Positions 1 through 55,560 of a DNA stretch of 64,000 nucleotides are shown here, piece after piece (position 1 is the first letter of the stretch; each line of letters begins with the position of its first letter). The stretch is taken from the NCBI GenBank assembly GCA_951406725.2, contig OX597818.1:108686001-108750000 (forward strand), given 5' to 3'. The translations under genes and the position numbers were made by a program. The notes beneath the pieces are model-generated. The model ran no database searches. It saw nothing but the letters and a program-made list of their open reading frames with translations, and was not told where the DNA came from. The DNA is from Octopus vulgaris (Eukaryota).

Positions 1-975
1 ACTTTTCTCTCAGGGCGCTTACACTCTGTCGTATATGCACACAAACATTACTCATCCAGCAGAGCATACTGGCTTCATTCCTTGCAAGCTTATACATGTC
101 CTCAGCAGTCATAGCCCATGTTTCACTGCCATGTTGCATGGCTGTTCGCACACATGCATCATACAGTCTGCCTTTTACTCTGAGCAAGAGGCCCTTTGTC
201 ACCAGCAGAGTTAAGAGCTCTCTGAACTTTGCTCAGGTTATTCTTATTCTAGCAGTTACATTTTCAGAGCATCCACCACTGCTACTGACTTGGTCTCCTA
301 GGTAACGGAAGATATCAACTATTTCTAGTTTTTCTCCCTAAAATGTGACAGAAGCTGTTCTCTGCACATTTTCTGTGTTTATAGCACCTGAGCATTTGTC
401 ACATACAAAATTTATCTTCCCCGTTAGCCTTCCTTTGACATTGATGCACCTCTTATGTGTCCATAGCTTACACTGGGTATAGCTTATGGAGTTTCTACTT
501 ATGCCTTTTCTACAGATCGAGCAGGGCCATCTACCTGATGCGATTTGTGGTTTGTCTGCCTTTCTACTTATTAAGACTTTGGTTTTAGCTAGGTTGACTC
601 TAAGGCCCTTCAATTCTAATCCTTGCTTCCACACCTGAAACTTCTCCTCTAGTTCTGATAGTGACTCAGCAATTAGAGCAAGGTCATCAGCATAGAGGAG
701 CTCCCAGGGGCATCCTGTCTTGAATTCCTCTGTTATTGCCTGGAGGACTACGATGAATAAGAGGGGGCTGAGGACTGATCCTTGGTGGACCCCTATCTCT
801 ACTCAGAATTCTTCACTGTACACATTGCCAACCCACACCTTATTGACAGCATCCCTGTACATGGCTTGCACAGCTCTCACTAACCATTCATCTATCCCTA
901 GTTTCCTCATTGACCACCAGATAAGGAGTCGGGGGACCCTGTCAAAGGCTTTCTTTCTGTCAACAAAAGCCAGCT
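1..975 (-). mobile_element. RTE-clade non-LTR retrotransposon fragment (RT core, Cys/His finger, thumb)
   Basis: Minus strand reads GVHQGSVLSPLLFI...TGCPWELLYADDLALI (YADD at ~683-694), continues into ORF 338-634, and later shows a HGSETWA thumb motif. Interrupted by stops. Confidence 0.88.
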
Positions 976-4589: not shown

Positions 4590-4747
4590 ACATTATTTAC
4601 ATTTGACGGATATTTGTCCTCATCTTGTTTGTTGTTAACACAATGTTTCGGCTGATATATCCTCCAGCCTTCATCAGGTGTCTTGGGGAAATTTTGAACC
4701 TGGGTTCTCATTCCTAAGGTATTTTTCAATGTTATTATTATTATTAT
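4590..4747 (-). mobile_element. Hammerhead-containing SINE-like element, copy 1 (3' part)
   Basis: Homologous to 25250-25400, 53460-53610 and 55385-55535. The upstream arm TATTCAGGTCACTG reappears at ~5245-5258, beyond the Dong insertion. Confidence 0.85.
4637..4682 (-). ncRNA. Minimal type I hammerhead ribozyme motif
   Basis: GACAC-CTGATGA-A-GGCTG(GAGGATATAT)CAGCC-GAAA-C-ATT-GTGTT. Stems I and II are intact; ATT instead of the consensus GTT is a CpG-type change. Confidence 0.65.
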
Positions 4748-5215
4748 CTTATGTTTGACTTTTGCTTTACATTTGTACAAGCTGGTTCCAAGTCTCACCC
4801 AGAGACCTCAAGAGACAAGTTGGAAGTTCATGTTGGTATTATGCCTAGGGTGCCATATTTTTAGTTTTGTACATAGTGTTCTGGAGAATGTTTAAAAAAC
4901 CATTAGAAAATTATGTTTGTTTTAAAACTTGAGATTACATAGTAAGTATTTTGCGTAGGATATGGGCAGTTCCCATGAGTACTATCTTTTGAATTTCTGC
5001 CATTTTGGGGTTTCCTGGTATCTGAGCTATGTAGCAATCAGCCCCTTTTGCTCTCATTCCTAGGGCACCTGTGACAACAGGTATTGTTTTAGTCTTCTGG
5101 TTCCACATTTTGCTAATTTCTATTTCAAGATCTTTATATTTGCTCAGTTTTTGGTAGGTCTTGACAGATACGTTTATATCGATTGGGACAGTCATATCAA
5201 TGAGGAGGCATGATT
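4748..5215 (-). mobile_element. R4/Dong-clade LINE 3' fragment (restriction-like endonuclease C-terminus plus 3' UTR)
   Basis: LLIDMTVPIDINVSVKTYQKLSKYKDLEIEISKMW...IPVVTGALG...IQKIVLMGTAHILRK matches the R4/Dong RLE end. Flanked on both sides by (TAA)n, the known Dong target. Confidence 0.85.
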
Positions 5216-14764: not shown

Positions 14765-15023
14765 TATAACCATACCTAATTAAACACCAAGAGGAAAACC
14801 ACCAAGCGGCTTCCTTGTTTGCTGAAAGAAGATGTCATATCTCCAAACCACAGAAAATATGTTCTCATACATAATAGCACAGTGGGTGTAAGCAGTCAAG
14901 ACTATAGGTAAAAGTTTAAAAGACTTGTTATTTTTCGTGGTTTGAAGGTCTGACATTTTCTTTCAGCAAGCATGGAAACCACTTGGTGGTTTTCCTCTTA
15001 ATGTATAATTACCCATGGTTATA
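14765..15023. repeat. Foldback inverted repeat, ~95-bp arms
   Basis: AAGAGGAAAACCACCAAG...GCTGAAAGAA..TGTCA pairs with TGACA..TTCTTTCAGC...CTTGGTGGTTTTCCTCTT. Confidence 0.85.
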
Positions 15024-19695: not shown

Positions 19696-20156
19696 TACAG
19701 TGTACATTTAAACACATAAGAGGTATCCGTCATAGGATTCCTGGCATGCTAGAAGGAACAGCCAAAATCCAAACCACTATTAGGGATAAAACTTCAAAGG
19801 GAATGAAAAATAAAAACATTTACCATCTATCTCCTGAACCATGGTTTCTGACTTTTTTTTAGCAAATAAAATAATTTCCTAGGTGAAGTCTTCATCAGCA
19901 GGTACATCTAGATTAAACATATAAGTATGAGGCAATCCAGCATGTGTCCCGTGCTTATACATTATAATTTTTCAAATCCATTTATTTGCCTAAAAAAAAG
20001 TCAGAAACCATGGTCCAGGAGATAGATGGTAAATGTTTTTATTTTTCATTCCCTTCAAGGTTTTATCCCTAATAGTAGTTTGTACTTTGGCTGTTCCTTC
20101 TAAAGTGCAAGGAATCCTATGACATCTACCTCTTATGTGTTTAAATGTACACTGTA
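19696..20156. mobile_element. Foldback element / MITE, ~175-bp arms, TA-flanked CAGTG termini
   Basis: TA-CAGTGTACATTTAAACACATAAGAGGTA ... TACCTCTTATGTGTTTAAATGTACACTG-TA. Confidence 0.8.
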
Positions 20157-25217: not shown

Positions 25218-25530
25218 CAGTTCTATATTTAAGAGATGAGGAATTATGAACATTATTTACATTTTACAGATATTTGTCCTCATCTTGTTTGTTGTTAACA
25301 CGTTTCAGCTGATATACCCTCCAGCCTTCATCAGGTGTCTTGGGGAAATTTTGAACCTGGATTCTCATTCCTAAGGTATTTTTCAATGTTGTTGTTATTA
25401 TTATTATTATTATTCAGGTCACTGCCATATACCCATGGACATATGGCATAGTGGTTAAGAGTACGGGCTACTAATCCCAAGATTCTGAGTTCGATTCAAG
25501 GCAGTGACCTGAATAATGATAATAATAAGA
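25218..25530. mobile_element. Hammerhead-containing element, copy 2; tRNA-like cassette points away from the ribozyme
   Basis: Hammerhead motif on minus 25297-25339; inverted repeats 25411-25426 / 25500-25515; A box TGGCATAGTGG and B box GAGTTCGATTC on plus. Confidence 0.85.
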
Positions 25531-25704
25531 ATGATATTAATAATTATATACCTACTGTTACTTTCACCCCATCATGAGGAATAGTGGGAGTGTCATTGAA
25601 TAGTGAGAGAGGGGCGGTCTAAGTGTGACACACTGACACACAGAAATTAGTTTCCGCATTTATCATATTAGATATGTGTGTATATAGTTGACATATATAT
25701 GAGA

Positions 25705-34320: not shown

Positions 34321-34399
34321 ATGGCTATGTGGTGAGAAGGTTGCTTCACAACCTTGAAACATGGAAACTGAAAGAAGCTTCTGTGTGTGTGTATATATA

Positions 34400-35130
34400 T
34401 ATATGAAGTAAAAGCATCTCTAGTGTTATAAATATTATTAATATATATATATACTTAATGTATAAGCTTTGTGTATTTTCTGGTGGCTGCAATGGCATGG
34501 CAGTTTGTACAAACTCTCAACTTGTCATGTGTTAAAAGACAGACAAGACGACACACCTTCAATCCCATTTCAGAGTAATCGACACTGGAATTTTGCCATT
34601 TTTGTGGCTTATCAACACCACCCAGCCAACAGGGTCGAAGGCAAGCCACTTAGCCAGTCCCAACAACTTATATGCTCATCGCTTGTAAAATCATGAGCTG
34701 GTATGCTCAGAAATTTAACACCCAGCGATTTAAGGGTTTATATTCTCTGCCACGCCATTGCAGCCACCTGAAAATCCACAAAGCACAGACATTAAGTTTA
34801 TGTGTTGTTAATATTTACTACTCTAGATCTGATTTTACTTCATATGTAAATTCTCCCTTAGCTATGCGACTTCCAGACCTACCAGCTCATGATTTTACAA
34901 GCCATGAGCCTATAAGTTGTTGGGACTGGCTAAGTGGCTTGCCTTCGACCCTGGTGGTTGGGTGGTGTTGATAAGCCACAAAAATGGCAAAACTCCAGTG
35001 TCCATTACTCCAGTACTTTACTGAGGTATCTTTTAAAACATGACAATTTGACCTCACTGCTATCCCATTGCAGCCACCAGAAAATACACAAAGCATATAC
35101 ATTAAGTATATGTGTTAATAATATATATAT
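34400..35130. repeat. Compound inverted repeat (A B / A' / B' A')
   Basis: 34450-34703 is inverted at 34880-35110; 34400-34495 is also inverted at 34755-34845. Confidence 0.85.
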
Positions 35131-37685: not shown

Positions 37686-39530
37686 TATGGTTGCATGGTA
37701 AGAATCTTGCTTCCCAACCACATGGTTCCAAGTTCAGTCCCACTGCATGGCACCCTGGACAAGTGTCTTCTACTATAACCTCAGACTGAGCAAAGCCTAG
37801 TGAGTGGATCAGGTAGATTGAAACTGTAAGAAACCCATTATATATTTGTGTGTCTGTGTATAGTTTTCTTGATAAATAATAGAATAAAAAGCCAACCACA
37901 TGGTTCCAAGTTCAGTCCCACTGCGTGGGACCCTGGACAAGTGTCTTCTACTATAACCTCAGACTGTGGATATAACCAGTGGATCTGGTAGATGGAAACT
38001 GAAAGAAGCCCATTATATGTTTGTGTATCTGTGTATAGTTTTCTTGATAAATAATAGAACTAAAAGCTAACCACATGGTTCCATGTTCAGTCCCACTGCG
38101 TAGCACCTTGGAAAAGTGTCTTCTAATATAACCTGAGACTGAGCAAAGCCTAGTGAGTGGATCTGGTAGATGGAAACTGAAAGAAGCCCATTATATGTGT
38201 GTGTGTGTCTGTGTATAGTTTTCTTGATAAATAATAGAATAAAAAGCCAACCACATGGTTCCAAGTTCAGTCCCACTGCGTAGCACCTTGGAAAAGTGTC
38301 TTCTAATATAACCTGAGACTGAGCAAAGCCTAGTGAGTGGATCTGGTAGATGGAAACTGAAAGAAGCCCATTATATGTTTGTGTGTCTGTGTATAGATTT
38401 CTTGATAAATAATAGAACTTAAAGCCAACCACATGGTTCCAAGTTCAGTCCCACTGCGTGGCACCTTGGACAAGTGTCTTCTAATATAACCTCAGACTGA
38501 GCAAAGCCTAGTGAGTGGATCTGGTAGATGGAAACTGAAAGAAGCCCATTATATGTTTGTGTATCTGTGTATAGATTTCTTGATAAATAATAGAACTTAA
38601 AGCCAACCACATGGTTCCCAGTTCAGTCCCACTGCATGGCACCTTGGACAAGTGTCTTCTACTATAACCTCAGACTGAGCAAAGCCTAGTGAGTGGATCT
38701 GGTAGATGGAAACTGAAAGAAGCCCATTATACGTGCGTGTATCTGTGTATAGTTTTCTTGATAAATAATAGAACTAAAAGCCAACCACATAGTTCCAAGT
38801 TCAGTACAACTGCGTGGCACCCTGGACAAGTGTCTTCTAATATAACCTCAGACTGAGCAAAGCCTAGTGAGTGGATCTGGTAGATGGAAACTGAAAGAAG
38901 CCCATTCTACGTGCGTGTGTGTGTTTGTATAGTTTTCTTGATAAATAATAGAACTAAAAGCTAACCACATGGTTCCATATTCAGTCCAACTCTGTGGCAC
39001 CATGGACAAGTGTTTTCTACTGTAACCTCAGACTGAGCAAAGCCTAGTGAGTGGAGATGGTAGATGGAAACTGAAAGAAGCCCATTATATGTGTGTGTGT
39101 GTCTGTGTATAGTTTTCTTGATAAATAATAGAACTAAAAGCCAACCACATAGTTCCAAGTTCAGTCCCACTGCATGGCACCTTGGACAAGTGTCTTCTAC
39201 TGTAACCTCAGACTGAGCAAAGCCTAGTGAGTGGATCTGGTAGATGGAAACTGAAAGAAGCCCATTATATGTGTGTGTCTGTGTATAGTTTTTTTATAAT
39301 GAACTAAAAGACGGGTGATCAAATAGGCAATGATGGCACATTTAGAGTGATCAATGCTTGACTACTAGCGTTGCTGTGTTTACATTCTCATATCTCAGCA
39401 GTTCGGCATAAGAGACCGATAGAATAAGTACCAAGCTTTAAAAAGATAAATGCTGGGATTGACTAAAAATTCAAGGCTGTGCCCCAGCATGGCCACAATC
39501 AAATGTCTAATACAAGTAAAATGGTTAAAG
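37686..39530 (+). repeat. Tandem array of 9 x ~178 bp units derived from the SINE-A 5' half, embedded in one SINE copy
   Basis: Unit starts ~37713, 37891, 38066, 38246, 38424, 38602, 38780, 38960, 39140. Degenerate SINE head only before unit 1; SINE 3' half resumes ~39355. Confidence 0.95.
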
Positions 39531-42443: not shown

Positions 42444-44448
42444 CATAATTGTGCTCAGCAAACATGACCAAGAAGTTATTTTTCTAGCTTGTAGAGTTTT
42501 TATTGTACTATGGAATATATATATAACATATTCTCAGTAGTTCTCTGTCATTTTAAGATTTCCTTGTTCTTTCGAGTGTGGAGGGATGGGGGGGGGGGGC
42601 GTCTTAATTCTAGCTCAACTGCAATGGATACTGCTGCAGAATTTCAATGTGATGTGACCACAGTTGAACCATGTATCCTTGTACATAGACACAAAGATTT
42701 GATTGGCAGAAATGAATAATAAAATCATTGACGAATATCAAAATACTAACCAGAAAGAAATAATAGCAGACCGAATGAAGCCATGCTACAGCAGACAAAC
42801 AATGGGTCGGGGGGGGGGGGCGTGCGAGCTGAAACTTAATAATACCAGAAGCAGACATGTTGGTCAGTTGAACTTTGACATTTGGGCCACTTGAGGCATG
42901 ACTACTTTAATCTGTCTCTAAGTTGACATCACCTGGAAACACGAGTGATATGTGAAGCATTAATCTTATTCAGGTTCATCACTTGGCTATTTGGAAGGTT
43001 ATCAAAAGTACTTGTGATCTTGCAGCCCTATGGGGGGGGGGGACACACACACAAGGAGCTTGTTATTGTCCTCATCATGTAATGAGAGAGAGAGGGGGAG
43101 GGTGGGGTGGGGGAAGGGAATGTTTTCTGTCAGGCCATGTTGTAAATAGACTTTACACTTCTATTGGATTATCATCCTTGTATCCTGTTCATGTCAAAAG
43201 TGAAGCCAGCTGCCATTTTAGCTTCTGTTAAGTCAAGTAGGATGTTTCTTAATGCATGTCAATTTGTGGTGAGCTTATAATTAGTGATCCCTGAACTGTA
43301 AAGATCCAATAATCATGAGAGGGGGGAAAAAAAAAAAACCTCTTTCAAATAAAAAATACCTTGTGTGGTTCTTGTTCTGCCAAGTCAAACAATCCTTTGT
43401 CACTCTCCACATTAGAAACAGGAATTTGGTGATTGACCCCAGTGTCAGTCAATTATGATTATAAATATTAAAGATCATTGAAAGACTATGGAATGGAGCA
43501 TTTCTTAAATTAAGGATATTTGCTCTAATAGTGATACAACATTTGTTTACAACTATGATAGAATAACAGCAGTTAAACAAATAATCTGGTGATAGAAAAT
43601 ATATTTGCTGAGTACAACACATAATTGCTTTAGCTAGGAAAATAAAAGCTCAAAACTGCTTTTATTTACTTAAAAATTCAATGACTATGTTTCTGAAACA
43701 CTCTAGAGTTTGTAGCATTAATATTTTACCTTAATTATTGTGGGTGTAAAGAAAATATAGACAAAAGCTTAATCCTATAAAAGATCTGAAAATGTAGCTT
43801 CAGAAAGAGTAAATCAAACAGCAAAACGTTTTCTGGGGATGAAAACATAAAGGACAACCACTTTCTATAATTATGTGTGATTTAACCATAAAACACATTC
43901 TGGAAGAGGAGGTAAGAAATCGAGAACAGAAAATAATTATTTGCAGTAACAGTCAAACCATTTATTTGAAATTGGTAAGAATTACATAATGAAAATGCTA
44001 GTCAAAACAAAATATCACCTGAGTTTGGATTAATAAGGAGACTGTTCTTGAAATGAAAACCATTGACCAGGTAGAGCCCTTTACACCACAAAGATCTAAA
44101 ATAAAATTTTAAAAACTCCCTGGTCACACAAACAAACAAAAATCAGAAATTTCCATTTTCTAACCAATAACTTTCACACTCACAGGAGAATGAAACTATT
44201 TCCATCAATACTAACCCCTCCCCACTATTTGTCCAGGAGCACAAATCATTCACTAAACATGGACATTTGAAAGATATTTGCATATTTGATGAAAATATTA
44301 TTATTATGTTATAGATATGTTGTGAACAAAATTATAAAGAGTAATTCTCCACCCTGCAAGATCTTATCAATTCATTTATAATAATATAATTTAGCTAATA
44401 AGAATGAGTTTTAAATCTTGTAGCATATCCACAAAGTGTTATCATGAA

Positions 44449-44880
44449 TACTTTGAGGATTGGAGCACAGATTGTTTGCCAATATAATATGACAGTCCTG
44501 GTTTAGGACAACTGTTGCTGTAATTTAGCCCCAGGAGACATCGTCTCCAACTAGCTATACGCCATGATTGGTGTCTTTATATTTTCGAACAAGAGAATCT
44601 AGCACCCCCACTCAGCTCAAAACAATATCTGTGAACTGTGATTTCTAGGTTATTCTAGGTCATCAGCACAGAACAATTATTCTGTGCTGATGAAGTGAAA
44701 TAACCTGAAAATCGCGATACACAGATATTGTTTTGAGCTGAGATGGGGTGCTAGATTCCCTTGTTCGAAAATATACGGGCAAAGACGTGTCATATAGCCA
44801 GCTGGGGCTAAATTACAGCAACATTCATCCTAAACCAGGACCACCATGTTATGTTGGCAAACAATCTGTACTCCAAAGTA
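44449..44880. repeat. ~430-bp palindrome with a hammerhead motif in each arm
   Basis: Arms pair to within a few nt of the centre (~44676); hammerhead-like motifs at 44681-44725 (+) and 44628-44672 (-). Confidence 0.9.
44681..44725 (+). ncRNA. Minimal hammerhead-like motif
   Basis: TCTGTG-CTGATGA-(13 nt)-GAAA-ATCGCGA-TA-CACAGA. Perfect 6-bp stem I and palindromic stem III region; stem II poorly paired. Confidence 0.55.
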
Positions 44881-45109
44881 CTGTTGCTGAATATCTCTCA
44901 TCGTGAGATTTTAAAAAATAGTCATTTTCTAATTTTGAGGAATGTTTGAAAAGAGATCAGTGTTCTAAGATGGATTATGTTCTCTGCTTAGTATTCTGGC
45001 TAAATGGACAATGTATGTCAGGAAGATGAAAATGGCAAATGGAATGGAAGTATGTAAAGTAGGCTTGAAAGGGAAAAAGAAAATCATTCCTTTTCTTAAT
45101 AAGTTCTTG

Positions 45110-53459: not shown

Positions 53460-53735
53460 AATTATTTACATTTGATGGATATTTGTCCTCATCTTGTTTG
53501 TTGTTAACACAACATTTTGGCTGATAAACCTTCCAGCCTTCATCACATGTCTTGGGGAAATTTCGAACCTGGGTTCTCATTCCTAAGGTATTTTTAGATG
53601 CTATTATTATTATTCAGGTCACTGCCTGGAATCAAACTCGGAATCCTGGGGTTAGTAGCCCATGCTCTTAACCACTATGCCATATGCCGACGGGCATATG
53701 GCAGTGATGTGAATAATAATAATAATAATAATAAA
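53460..53735 (-). mobile_element. Hammerhead-containing element, copy 3; tRNA-like cassette points toward the ribozyme
   Basis: Degenerate hammerhead 53506-53551; inverted repeats 53611-53626 / 53700-53715; cassette 53627-53699 on minus. Confidence 0.85.
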
Positions 53736-55108: not shown

Positions 55109-55204
55109 ATTATCATTATTGTTTTTTTCTATCAGTAATTACAAATAGAACAGGTTGAATTGCTTCTTTCCAAGGCAGCGCTCTCAGTGGCCACTGGTAG
55201 TAGT

Positions 55205-55384
55205 AAACAAAACATAATTTTCTTGTTTTCTTAAACATTCTCTAGAACAACACTATGTAAAAAACCCAAATATATGGCACCCTAGGCATAACACCAACAT
55301 GAACTTCCAACTTATTGTCTCTTGATGTCTCTGGGTGAGACTTGGAGCCAACTTGTACAAATACAAAGCAAAAGTCAAACATAA
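55205..55384 (+). mobile_element. R4/Dong 3' UTR, 5'-truncated
   Basis: Matches the reverse complement of 4748-4925. Confidence 0.8.
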
Positions 55385-55560
55385 AATAATAATAATATCT
55401 AAAAATACCTTAGAAATGAGAAACCAGGTTTGAAATTTCCCTAAGACACCTGATGAAGGGTGGAGGGTATATCAGACGAAACATTATGCTAACAACAAAC
55501 AAGATGAGGACAAATATCTGTCAAATGTAAATAATTCCTCGTCTCTTAAATATGGAACTG
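55385..55560 (+). mobile_element. Hammerhead-containing element, copy 4 (3' part)
   Basis: GACAC-CTGATGA-AGGGTGGAGGGTATATCAGAC-GAAA-CATTATGCT at 55445-55490. Confidence 0.85.

Follow-up and report, generated by a model that had tools for sequence, protein, structure and literature searches.

A decayed head-to-head palindrome with hammerhead-derived motifs in Octopus vulgaris, likely a protein-less Penelope-like insertion

The described systems closest to the locus reported here are Penelope-like retroelements. In Adineta vaga elements, as set out in the available text of PMC3846280, an inverted pseudo-LTR (pLTR) overlaps the direct one by 15 bp, palindromes of 18 to 38 bp lie at the pLTR 5′ end, a 31-bp tail is optional, duplications of 8 to 10 bp flank the insertions, and solo pLTRs occur. 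Self-priming on an antisense template was proposed in that work, and the accessible part of PMC8557442 presents the same scheme. For PAc, a Poseidon element of Anolis carolinensis, the available sections of PMC11167929 describe cutting and extension of both strands in vitro, with reverse transcription beginning at two internal sites that equal the two genomic ends defining the tail. Minimal hammerhead ribozymes with a palindromic helix III and low activity as dimers are found in pLTRs, and hammerhead pairs on opposite strands, 100 to 700 bp apart, are present in Schistosoma mansoni (PMC4209133, accessible portion). In Drosophila, siRNAs match inverted regions of Penelope copies (PMC3681739, accessible portion). 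Opposite-strand hammerhead pairs, siRNAs from Penelope inverted repeats and the inverted-pLTR layout are already published. The word hammerhead has no occurrence in the available text of PMC3846280, so this source does not tie the junction to the ribozyme.

We analyzed a 64-kb stretch of Octopus vulgaris DNA (the window), which is AT-rich and consists of ∼32% repeats by self-comparison. An initial annotation, made from the letters, had placed a palindrome at 44449-44880 with its axis a few nucleotides 5′ of stem I of two hammerhead motifs. The palindrome and its axis held up, the arms meeting at 44676/44677, 4 nt 5′ of stem I on each strand, but the limits did not: because a match out to 44449/44880 requires a 7-nt gap and the repeat family continues beyond 44880, we define the unit as 44460-44933. 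Its two arms, one inverted and one direct, and a 57-base tail that is present on just one side lie within an 8-base direct repeat (Table 1). Over 44460-44876, 167 of 200 aligned arm pairs are identical, the differences being 23 transitions and 10 transversions, with a 16-nt deletion in the right arm in addition; BLAST between the arms gave 77% over 434 columns, gaps included. The arm copies are decayed. The RNA fold of the palindrome has a free energy of −275 kcal/mol (z −28.5), and 0 of 100 shuffles was as stable. All six frames of the arms contain stops and none is open from the ribozyme to the end of the arm; as no reading frame is present in the insert, we do not class the unit as an autonomous Penelope element.

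Table 1. Features of the palindromic unit and its borders (window coordinates)
Feature	Position	Strand	Remarks
Left copy of the 8-bp direct repeat (TTTGAGGA), candidate target-site duplication	44452..44459	+	Exact match to 44934-44941
Inverted arm, inverted pseudo-LTR-like repeat, 217 nt	44460..44676	-	Tail-less; stops at the short 3′ end of the family
Decayed type I hammerhead motif, minus	44628..44672	-	Stem I and core boxes intact; stem III palindrome lost
Mirror axis, imperfect 12-nt palindrome GAACAATTATTC	44671..44682	.	Candidate site of joining or fold-back
Direct arm, pseudo-LTR-like repeat, 200 nt	44677..44876	+	Near 44801, a private deletion of 16 nt between CTGG repeats
Decayed type I hammerhead motif, plus	44681..44725	+	Intact stem I, CTGATGA and TA triplet; retains the ATCGCGAT palindrome; cleavage predicted after 44719
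One-sided tail, 57 nt	44877..44933	+	Extends to the long 3′ end of the family
Right copy of the 8-bp direct repeat	44934..44941	+	

Both hammerhead motifs are present as previously read. The plus arm has its core at 44687, followed by a 13-nt spacer, GAAA, ATCGCGA, TA and CACAGA; the minus arm has its core at 44666, followed by a 14-nt spacer, GAAA, TCACAG, TT and CACAGA. In a core-plus-stem-I scan of the 64-kb window, these were the only matches with a stem I of at least 5 bp. Block shuffles (n=400) gave 0 matches with a 6-bp stem I and 0.0025 per window with a 5-bp stem I. Since 0 of 400 shuffles produced it, the motif is not a product of chance, and the two matches count once because one mirrors the other. 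Stem I, paired over 6 bp in both arms, is longer than had been claimed. When the isolated motifs were folded with 7 nt from across the axis, stem I (mean pairing probability 0.91-0.96) was followed on both strands by a distal 8-bp helix behind a 3x1 loop. Because this distal helix recruits nucleotides from across the axis, the 12-nt palindrome is part of the ribozyme's own stem, and it provides the distal 5′ strand of stem I to each arm.

Stem II had been called weak, yet in its canonical form it is absent from both arms. The plus arm offers 2 pairs at best without a bulge, or a G-U pair, a mismatch and a G-C pair after a bulged A, a version that departs by two changes from the published consensus carrying G10.1-C11.1. 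In the minus arm, 3 pairs form, and only after a 2-nt bulge; G10.1-C11.1 is missing in both arms. The 5′ strand of stem II in the minus arm looks overwritten by a local duplication of TCTAGGT (44644 and 44654); contig depth at 44656-44657 is low in all four sequencing runs described below (90, 55-90, 0 and 47), which makes this variant of the minus arm near-private. The palindrome of the stem III region stands on the plus arm (self-duplex −12.1 kcal/mol) but not on the minus arm (+0.3 kcal/mol). On the plus arm, the ATCGCGAT palindrome sits one base out of register with GAAA. In a gap-free alignment of the arms, AAAA in the plus arm faces GAAA in the minus arm, so the plus-arm register has moved by one and put the palindrome out of step. 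A third family version, in one contig snippet of run X1, reads CCCA-GAAA-TAGTGA with G at the cut site. Inability of the family consensus to form stem II had been named beforehand as a point that would refute the initial reading; at this locus a canonical stem II indeed does not form, but three versions do not make a family consensus.

Mismatches between the arms are densest from stem II to the cut site (10/26 versus 22/157, p 0.005). Two different template RNAs were considered as a source of these differences and are not needed, as about 7 of the 10 are, by eye, CpG-type changes or local duplication. The motifs are hammerhead-derived and damaged, and the missing canonical stem II suggests that both ribozymes are probably dead at this locus. 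Rfam reported no hammerhead family in the window or in 44600-44760, a negative of little weight, as the minimal hammerhead of textbook form at 4677 was missed too. No viral contig matched the hammerhead pattern, and no metagenome contig matched a conserved 20-mer of the arms. Two metagenome contigs that matched the pattern were dropped, as they have only the 12-nt pattern in common with the element. The two contigs are nearly identical, and their hammerhead-like motif, unrelated to that of the element, combines a 7-bp stem I with a stem III region that is palindromic (L001 401-443, minus strand; L002 401-443, plus strand).

We then considered the repeat family in public contigs. Contigs of four of 24 runs (X1 and X8 from organism A, X5 from organism B, X18 from organism D) were aligned to 44050-45090 at 80% likeness, and 5879, 4191 and 3680 contigs fitted in the DNA runs X1, X5 and X18, respectively. 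Summed depth rose from tens in the flanks to 1e4-1e6 between ∼44470 and 44925, three to four orders over the flanks, and was 6.9e4 to 1.9e5 in the bin 44890-44924 of the three DNA runs. The family is very abundant, summed contig depth being no copy number. The contig counts below come from 24 of 902 loose-end entries, 15 of 129 joints, 40 of 95 variants and 32 of 14,442 pieces.

The contigs show that the family has two 3′ ends ∼57 nt apart, with and without the tail. Short 3′ ends behind 44872-44877, in at least 18 contigs of X5 and at least 51 of X18, lead into dissimilar AT-rich flanks, and loose ends before 44469, the mirror of this short end, were found in at least 28, 41 and 27 contigs of X1, X5 and X18. 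Loose ends behind 44911 and 44916 stay window-like to ∼44934 (at least 132, 146 and 128 contigs, same order). As the family ends at both the short and the long site, the right arm has a 57-nt tail that is missing from the left arm. The 5′ structure differs among copies: at least 23 contigs of X1 and at least 29 of X5 match back to 44671 and then continue into a shared, other upstream sequence. Four of the listed pieces come up to the axis from the right and have letters left over; all four end at 44671-44677, so the 5′ side is variable among copies. None of the 32 listed pieces (of 14,442) crosses the axis; contigs of this kind tend to collapse palindromes.

Among the listed joints, a few contigs link the post-ribozyme part of the left arm straight to the ribozyme (44620 to 44672, 44623 to 44671 and 44631 to 44677). 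Contigs of X1, X5 and X18 on 44620-44677 look like hairpin copies with a single hammerhead in the loop, in which long arms would lengthen stem I and not block the core. A post-ribozyme to ribozyme depth ratio of ∼2 to 2.7 in the DNA runs was left unused as a sign of many such one-ribozyme hairpins, since summed depth is not copy number. On visual inspection, the upstream sequence shared by the copies that match back to 44671 is imperfectly complementary to 44736-44766, with differences of the G-U type. A source element in which a long RNA stem closed the ribozyme would leave such a trace, and so would a diverged palindromic subfamily.

At the locus itself, single contigs from organisms A, B and D cross the left junction, with 1, 8 and 33 differing letters over 440-490 bases. 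Because this junction is common to all three, the insertion is older than their split. Both outer junctions are bridged by X1 contigs with 1 differing letter each, one of them also with a 7-letter gap in the flank. In line with a private 16-nt deletion, an X5 contig holds inserted letters at 44789-44801, where depth drops sharply. Of 10 arm sites checked, the family majority letter was that of the other arm at 6, gaps occurred at 3, and 1, in a poorly aligned patch, was unlike both; these letters fit independent decay of the arms.

Taken together, these data show 44460-44933 to be two mirror copies of a high-copy repeat, likely put in place by one insertion event of a Penelope-like reverse transcriptase and nuclease and likely joined at the small palindrome. 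The unit is likely a protein-less insertion of a Penelope-like retroelement whose layout has already been described. The link to Penelope-like elements with inverted 5′ segments, already proposed in the initial annotation, is supported by the one-sided tail, the two family 3′ ends, the 8-bp flanking repeat and the varied 5′ structure, and the inverted pLTR-like arm is joined head to head via a short palindrome as in Penelope derivatives. When the flanking repeat was taken at the family-defined ends, 0.4% of 20,000 random junction pairs matched equally well. Its length agrees with the 8 to 10 bp of Penelope-like duplications, an agreement weakened by organism D, in which 3 of 8 letters of the left copy are changed and the right flank is without contig cover.

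With Pen2a, Pen2 and Pen3a of A. vaga (PMC3846280, available text), the unit shares a head-to-head inverted pLTR of ∼200 nt, a junction palindrome, a one-sided tail and an 8-10 bp duplication, the 15-bp overlap being noted for Pen2a; it differs in having no frame, only one direct repeat and a tail of 57 rather than 31 nt, and in the far greater abundance of its family. The general scheme of PMC8557442, as far as accessible, also fits. With the type I hammerheads of metazoan Penelope elements (PMC4209133, accessible portion), the motifs share the CUGAUGA and GAAA boxes, the UH triplet, stem I and, on the plus arm and one base out of register, a palindromic stem III region, whereas the cores of the unit lie 20 nt apart, share the distal strand of stem I across the axis and have no G10.1-C11.1. 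PAc, in the available sections of PMC11167929, likewise has two 3′ ends after the pLTR hammerhead that define a tail, together with AT-rich flanks, and for PAc two start sites and two-strand extension were shown. Unlike the unit, PAc is autonomous: its frame opens within stem II, and reverse transcription starts 111-118 nt inside that frame; the ends of the unit lie ∼180 and 240 nt past stem II, with no open frame. Non-LTR retrozymes (PMC7229834; bioRxiv 10.64898/2026.07.22.740005; both as available) are also protein-less and hammerhead-bearing, with a proposed origin in Penelope pLTRs. They are head-to-tail tandems, whereas the unit is a single head-to-head pair with tail and flanking duplication, and we found no direct repeat of the unit, and hence no head-to-tail tandem, within the 64-kb window. 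Judged by its structure, the unit behaves like a non-autonomous Penelope-like insertion, apart from a tail longer than those published. In the literature covered, which left Repbase, Dfam, most subscription journals and preprint supplements outside, there was no description of the family or of an inversion point inside a hammerhead stem I, and the arm motifs were not present in one text supplement of PMC8557442.

Several points speak against this reading. No reverse transcriptase or GIY-YIG frame of the family was seen in a window scan of 142 of 1275 frames, so the link is one of anatomy. The tail exceeds the 30-40 nt published, and the arms are closed between ribozyme and arm end, whereas in PAc and Pen2a the frame begins within the pLTR. 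No pairing of stem II was demonstrable for the family, and the listed contig entries are few and may come from contigs with collapsed palindromes.

If the Penelope-like reading is right, insertion likely proceeded as follows. A Penelope-like RT-endonuclease would act in trans, and each nick in the target would prime a short cDNA of the terminal repeat, the two outer ends corresponding to the two reverse-transcription start sites that define the tail in Anolis PAc. That one outer end is the family's short end and the other its long end agrees with one cDNA being primed per nick. The 3′ ends of both cDNAs, nearly self-complementary over 12 nt, could anneal and be filled in at the palindrome 5′ of the ribozyme. 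In a close alternative, one cDNA would fold back at the same palindrome; we lean slightly towards two primings, as a single folded-back cDNA has to account for a copy that stops at the short end. After insertion, the arms would decay independently, and a transcript would present the antisense arm first, which would capture the core and leave a passive double-stranded RNA substrate with no working ribozyme. A more specific proposal, that the extended stem I of the ribozyme sets the place where Penelope cDNAs join in a very large protein-less family, is put forward tentatively and may well prove wrong.

The strongest competitor, of modest probability, is that direct-repeat recombination within the original duplication removed the frame from a full insertion (order: inverted pLTR, pLTR, frame, pLTR, tail). 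The product would share its ends with the observed unit, Pen2a has the full layout, and solo pLTRs have been put down to recombination or deletion (PMC3846280, available text). We find this harder to reconcile with the many short pieces of mixed 5′ structure, one-ribozyme hairpins included, which would be simpler to produce during insertion than through a separate recombination for every piece. We saw no longer allele, and no listed contig spans the whole element.

A DNA-transposon MITE with 200-bp terminal inverted repeats and a captured or chance hammerhead-like motif is improbable. High copy number, long inverted arms and the lack of a frame would all suit it, as would an outer match of TA-CTTTG...CAAAG-TA, provided that a 7-nt gap is accepted and setting aside that two letters of this match are altered in organism D. 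An 8-bp duplication is typical of hAT elements as well. The fixed symmetric ends of a MITE, which the initial annotation had listed as evidence against its own reading, are not what we found: the tail is one-sided, extending the family 57 nt beyond the palindrome on one side, there are two 3′ ends, and many copies have another upstream part. The shuffles argue against a chance motif. For contrast, the window holds a palindrome at 19696-20156 with symmetric TA-flanked ends. This 460-nt palindrome has 81% alike arms and ends of TA-CAGTG...CACTG-TA, which we take to resemble a Tc1/mariner MITE; its spacer contains CTGATGA...GAAA on the minus strand without a stem I.

The initial annotation had further proposed that a transcript from either strand, holding a ribozyme and its antisense copy, would form a self-silencing hairpin. 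The blocking hairpin is supported by prediction. In the full palindrome, the penalty for adopting the hammerhead fold is +34 kcal/mol on the plus strand and +43 kcal/mol on the minus strand, versus +1 and +9 kcal/mol in the isolated motifs, and by computation a transcript that stops at 44695 already has its core paired. Since transcription of a head-to-head pair passes through the antisense arm before the sense arm, the core would be captured once made, and any transcript is predicted to form a long double-stranded RNA that blocks the ribozyme. A self-silencing function did not find the same support. Both arms are without a canonical stem II, the arms differ at 33 of 200 pairs and by the 16-nt deletion, and transitions preserving a G-U pair number 10 versus 13 between the strands (p 0.68), which is no bias. 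A functional device, be it a live ribozyme turned off by its antisense copy or a source of small RNAs against the family, is thus quite unlikely, even though the core would be trapped as soon as it is made and Drosophila has siRNAs from Penelope inverted repeats (PMC3681739, accessible portion). The mismatch peak from stem II to the cut site also stands against it. Moreover, metazoan Penelope hammerheads require a same-strand partner or help from protein (PMC4209133, PMC11167929 and PMC6765202, accessible portions), which copies on opposite strands cannot provide in cis. In X8, a run guessed to be RNA, both unique flanks are covered at a depth of 3.6-5.2, and 15 A>G places compare with 10, 13 and 18 in the DNA runs, figures that speak neither for nor against expression or editing. 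Rfam gave only sub-threshold matches to microRNA hairpins in 44600-44760, and a Pfam scan of 142 of 1275 window frames (at least 30 aa) found no host gene and only a reverse transcriptase fragment above the cut-off. The hairpin is likely a by-product rather than a device, and the locus is probably a decayed transposon insertion of known layout that does nothing.

An assembly or library fold-back artefact can practically be dismissed: none of the listed contig pieces (32 of 14,442) spans the axis, but X1 contigs bridge both outer junctions, and 33 differences among 200 arm pairs, 23 of them transitions, are not what a newly made fold-back copy would show.

Other repeats of the window were recorded alongside the unit. 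A second hammerhead repeat family has four copies, at 4590-4924, 25218-25404 and 53460-53614 on the minus strand and 55204-55560 on the plus strand. The hammerhead at 4677 (minus strand) is a textbook minimal one with a bulged A and a 5-bp stem II with G10.1-C11.1, and the other three copies have core or stem changes. Joined to this family at the same place, in opposite orientations, is a flip-flop cassette (25392-25531 and 53602-53734), in which a head that is tRNA-like by eye and a 5′ hairpin lie between CAGGTCACTGCC-type inverted repeats and (AAT)n. ARAGORN found no tRNA in the cassette, possibly a SINE-like head that a Penelope 3′ end has mobilized. The parallel previously drawn between its hairpin axis and that of the palindrome was compared by eye and is one that we infer. 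A 260-nt palindrome at 14765-15023, 73% alike and with TATAACC...GGTTATA ends, lies between (CA)n and (TA)n runs. At 37700-39310 there are about nine tandem 178-nt units with ∼90% likeness, which stem from a portion of the dispersed repeat most common in the window, and 34395-35129 contains nested inverted and duplicated segments (34427-34703 versus 35129-34880, 80% alike). The reverse transcriptase fragment lies in a 154-aa frame at 341-802 (minus strand) with a Pfam RVT_1 piece (E 1e-12) followed by a PHD-like finger below the cut-off; this frame is a LINE-type repeat fragment with other pieces within the window.

The locus is useful as a pointer to how Penelope elements form head-to-head structures. 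In the accessible texts, self-priming has been proposed (PMC3846280) and two start sites with extension of two strands have been seen in vitro (PMC11167929), the later steps being unvalidated. With its short copies in the thousands, its pair of sharp 3′ ends and its joining point within the ribozyme stem, the family would make the mechanism testable by junction counts. The axis lies inside the ribozyme's own extension of stem I, and the small palindrome could be the site where cDNAs join. If stem I does set the joining point, its palindrome would lead to two-ribozyme palindromes and its distal helix to one-ribozyme hairpins. Such palindromes may be misfiled as MITEs or microRNA precursors. On the same tentative proposal about stem I, protein-less hairpins would have spread by the thousands as MITE look-alikes while moving through RNA, and the family would be a large natural read-out of Penelope second-strand synthesis in which each outer end marks a reverse-transcription start site.
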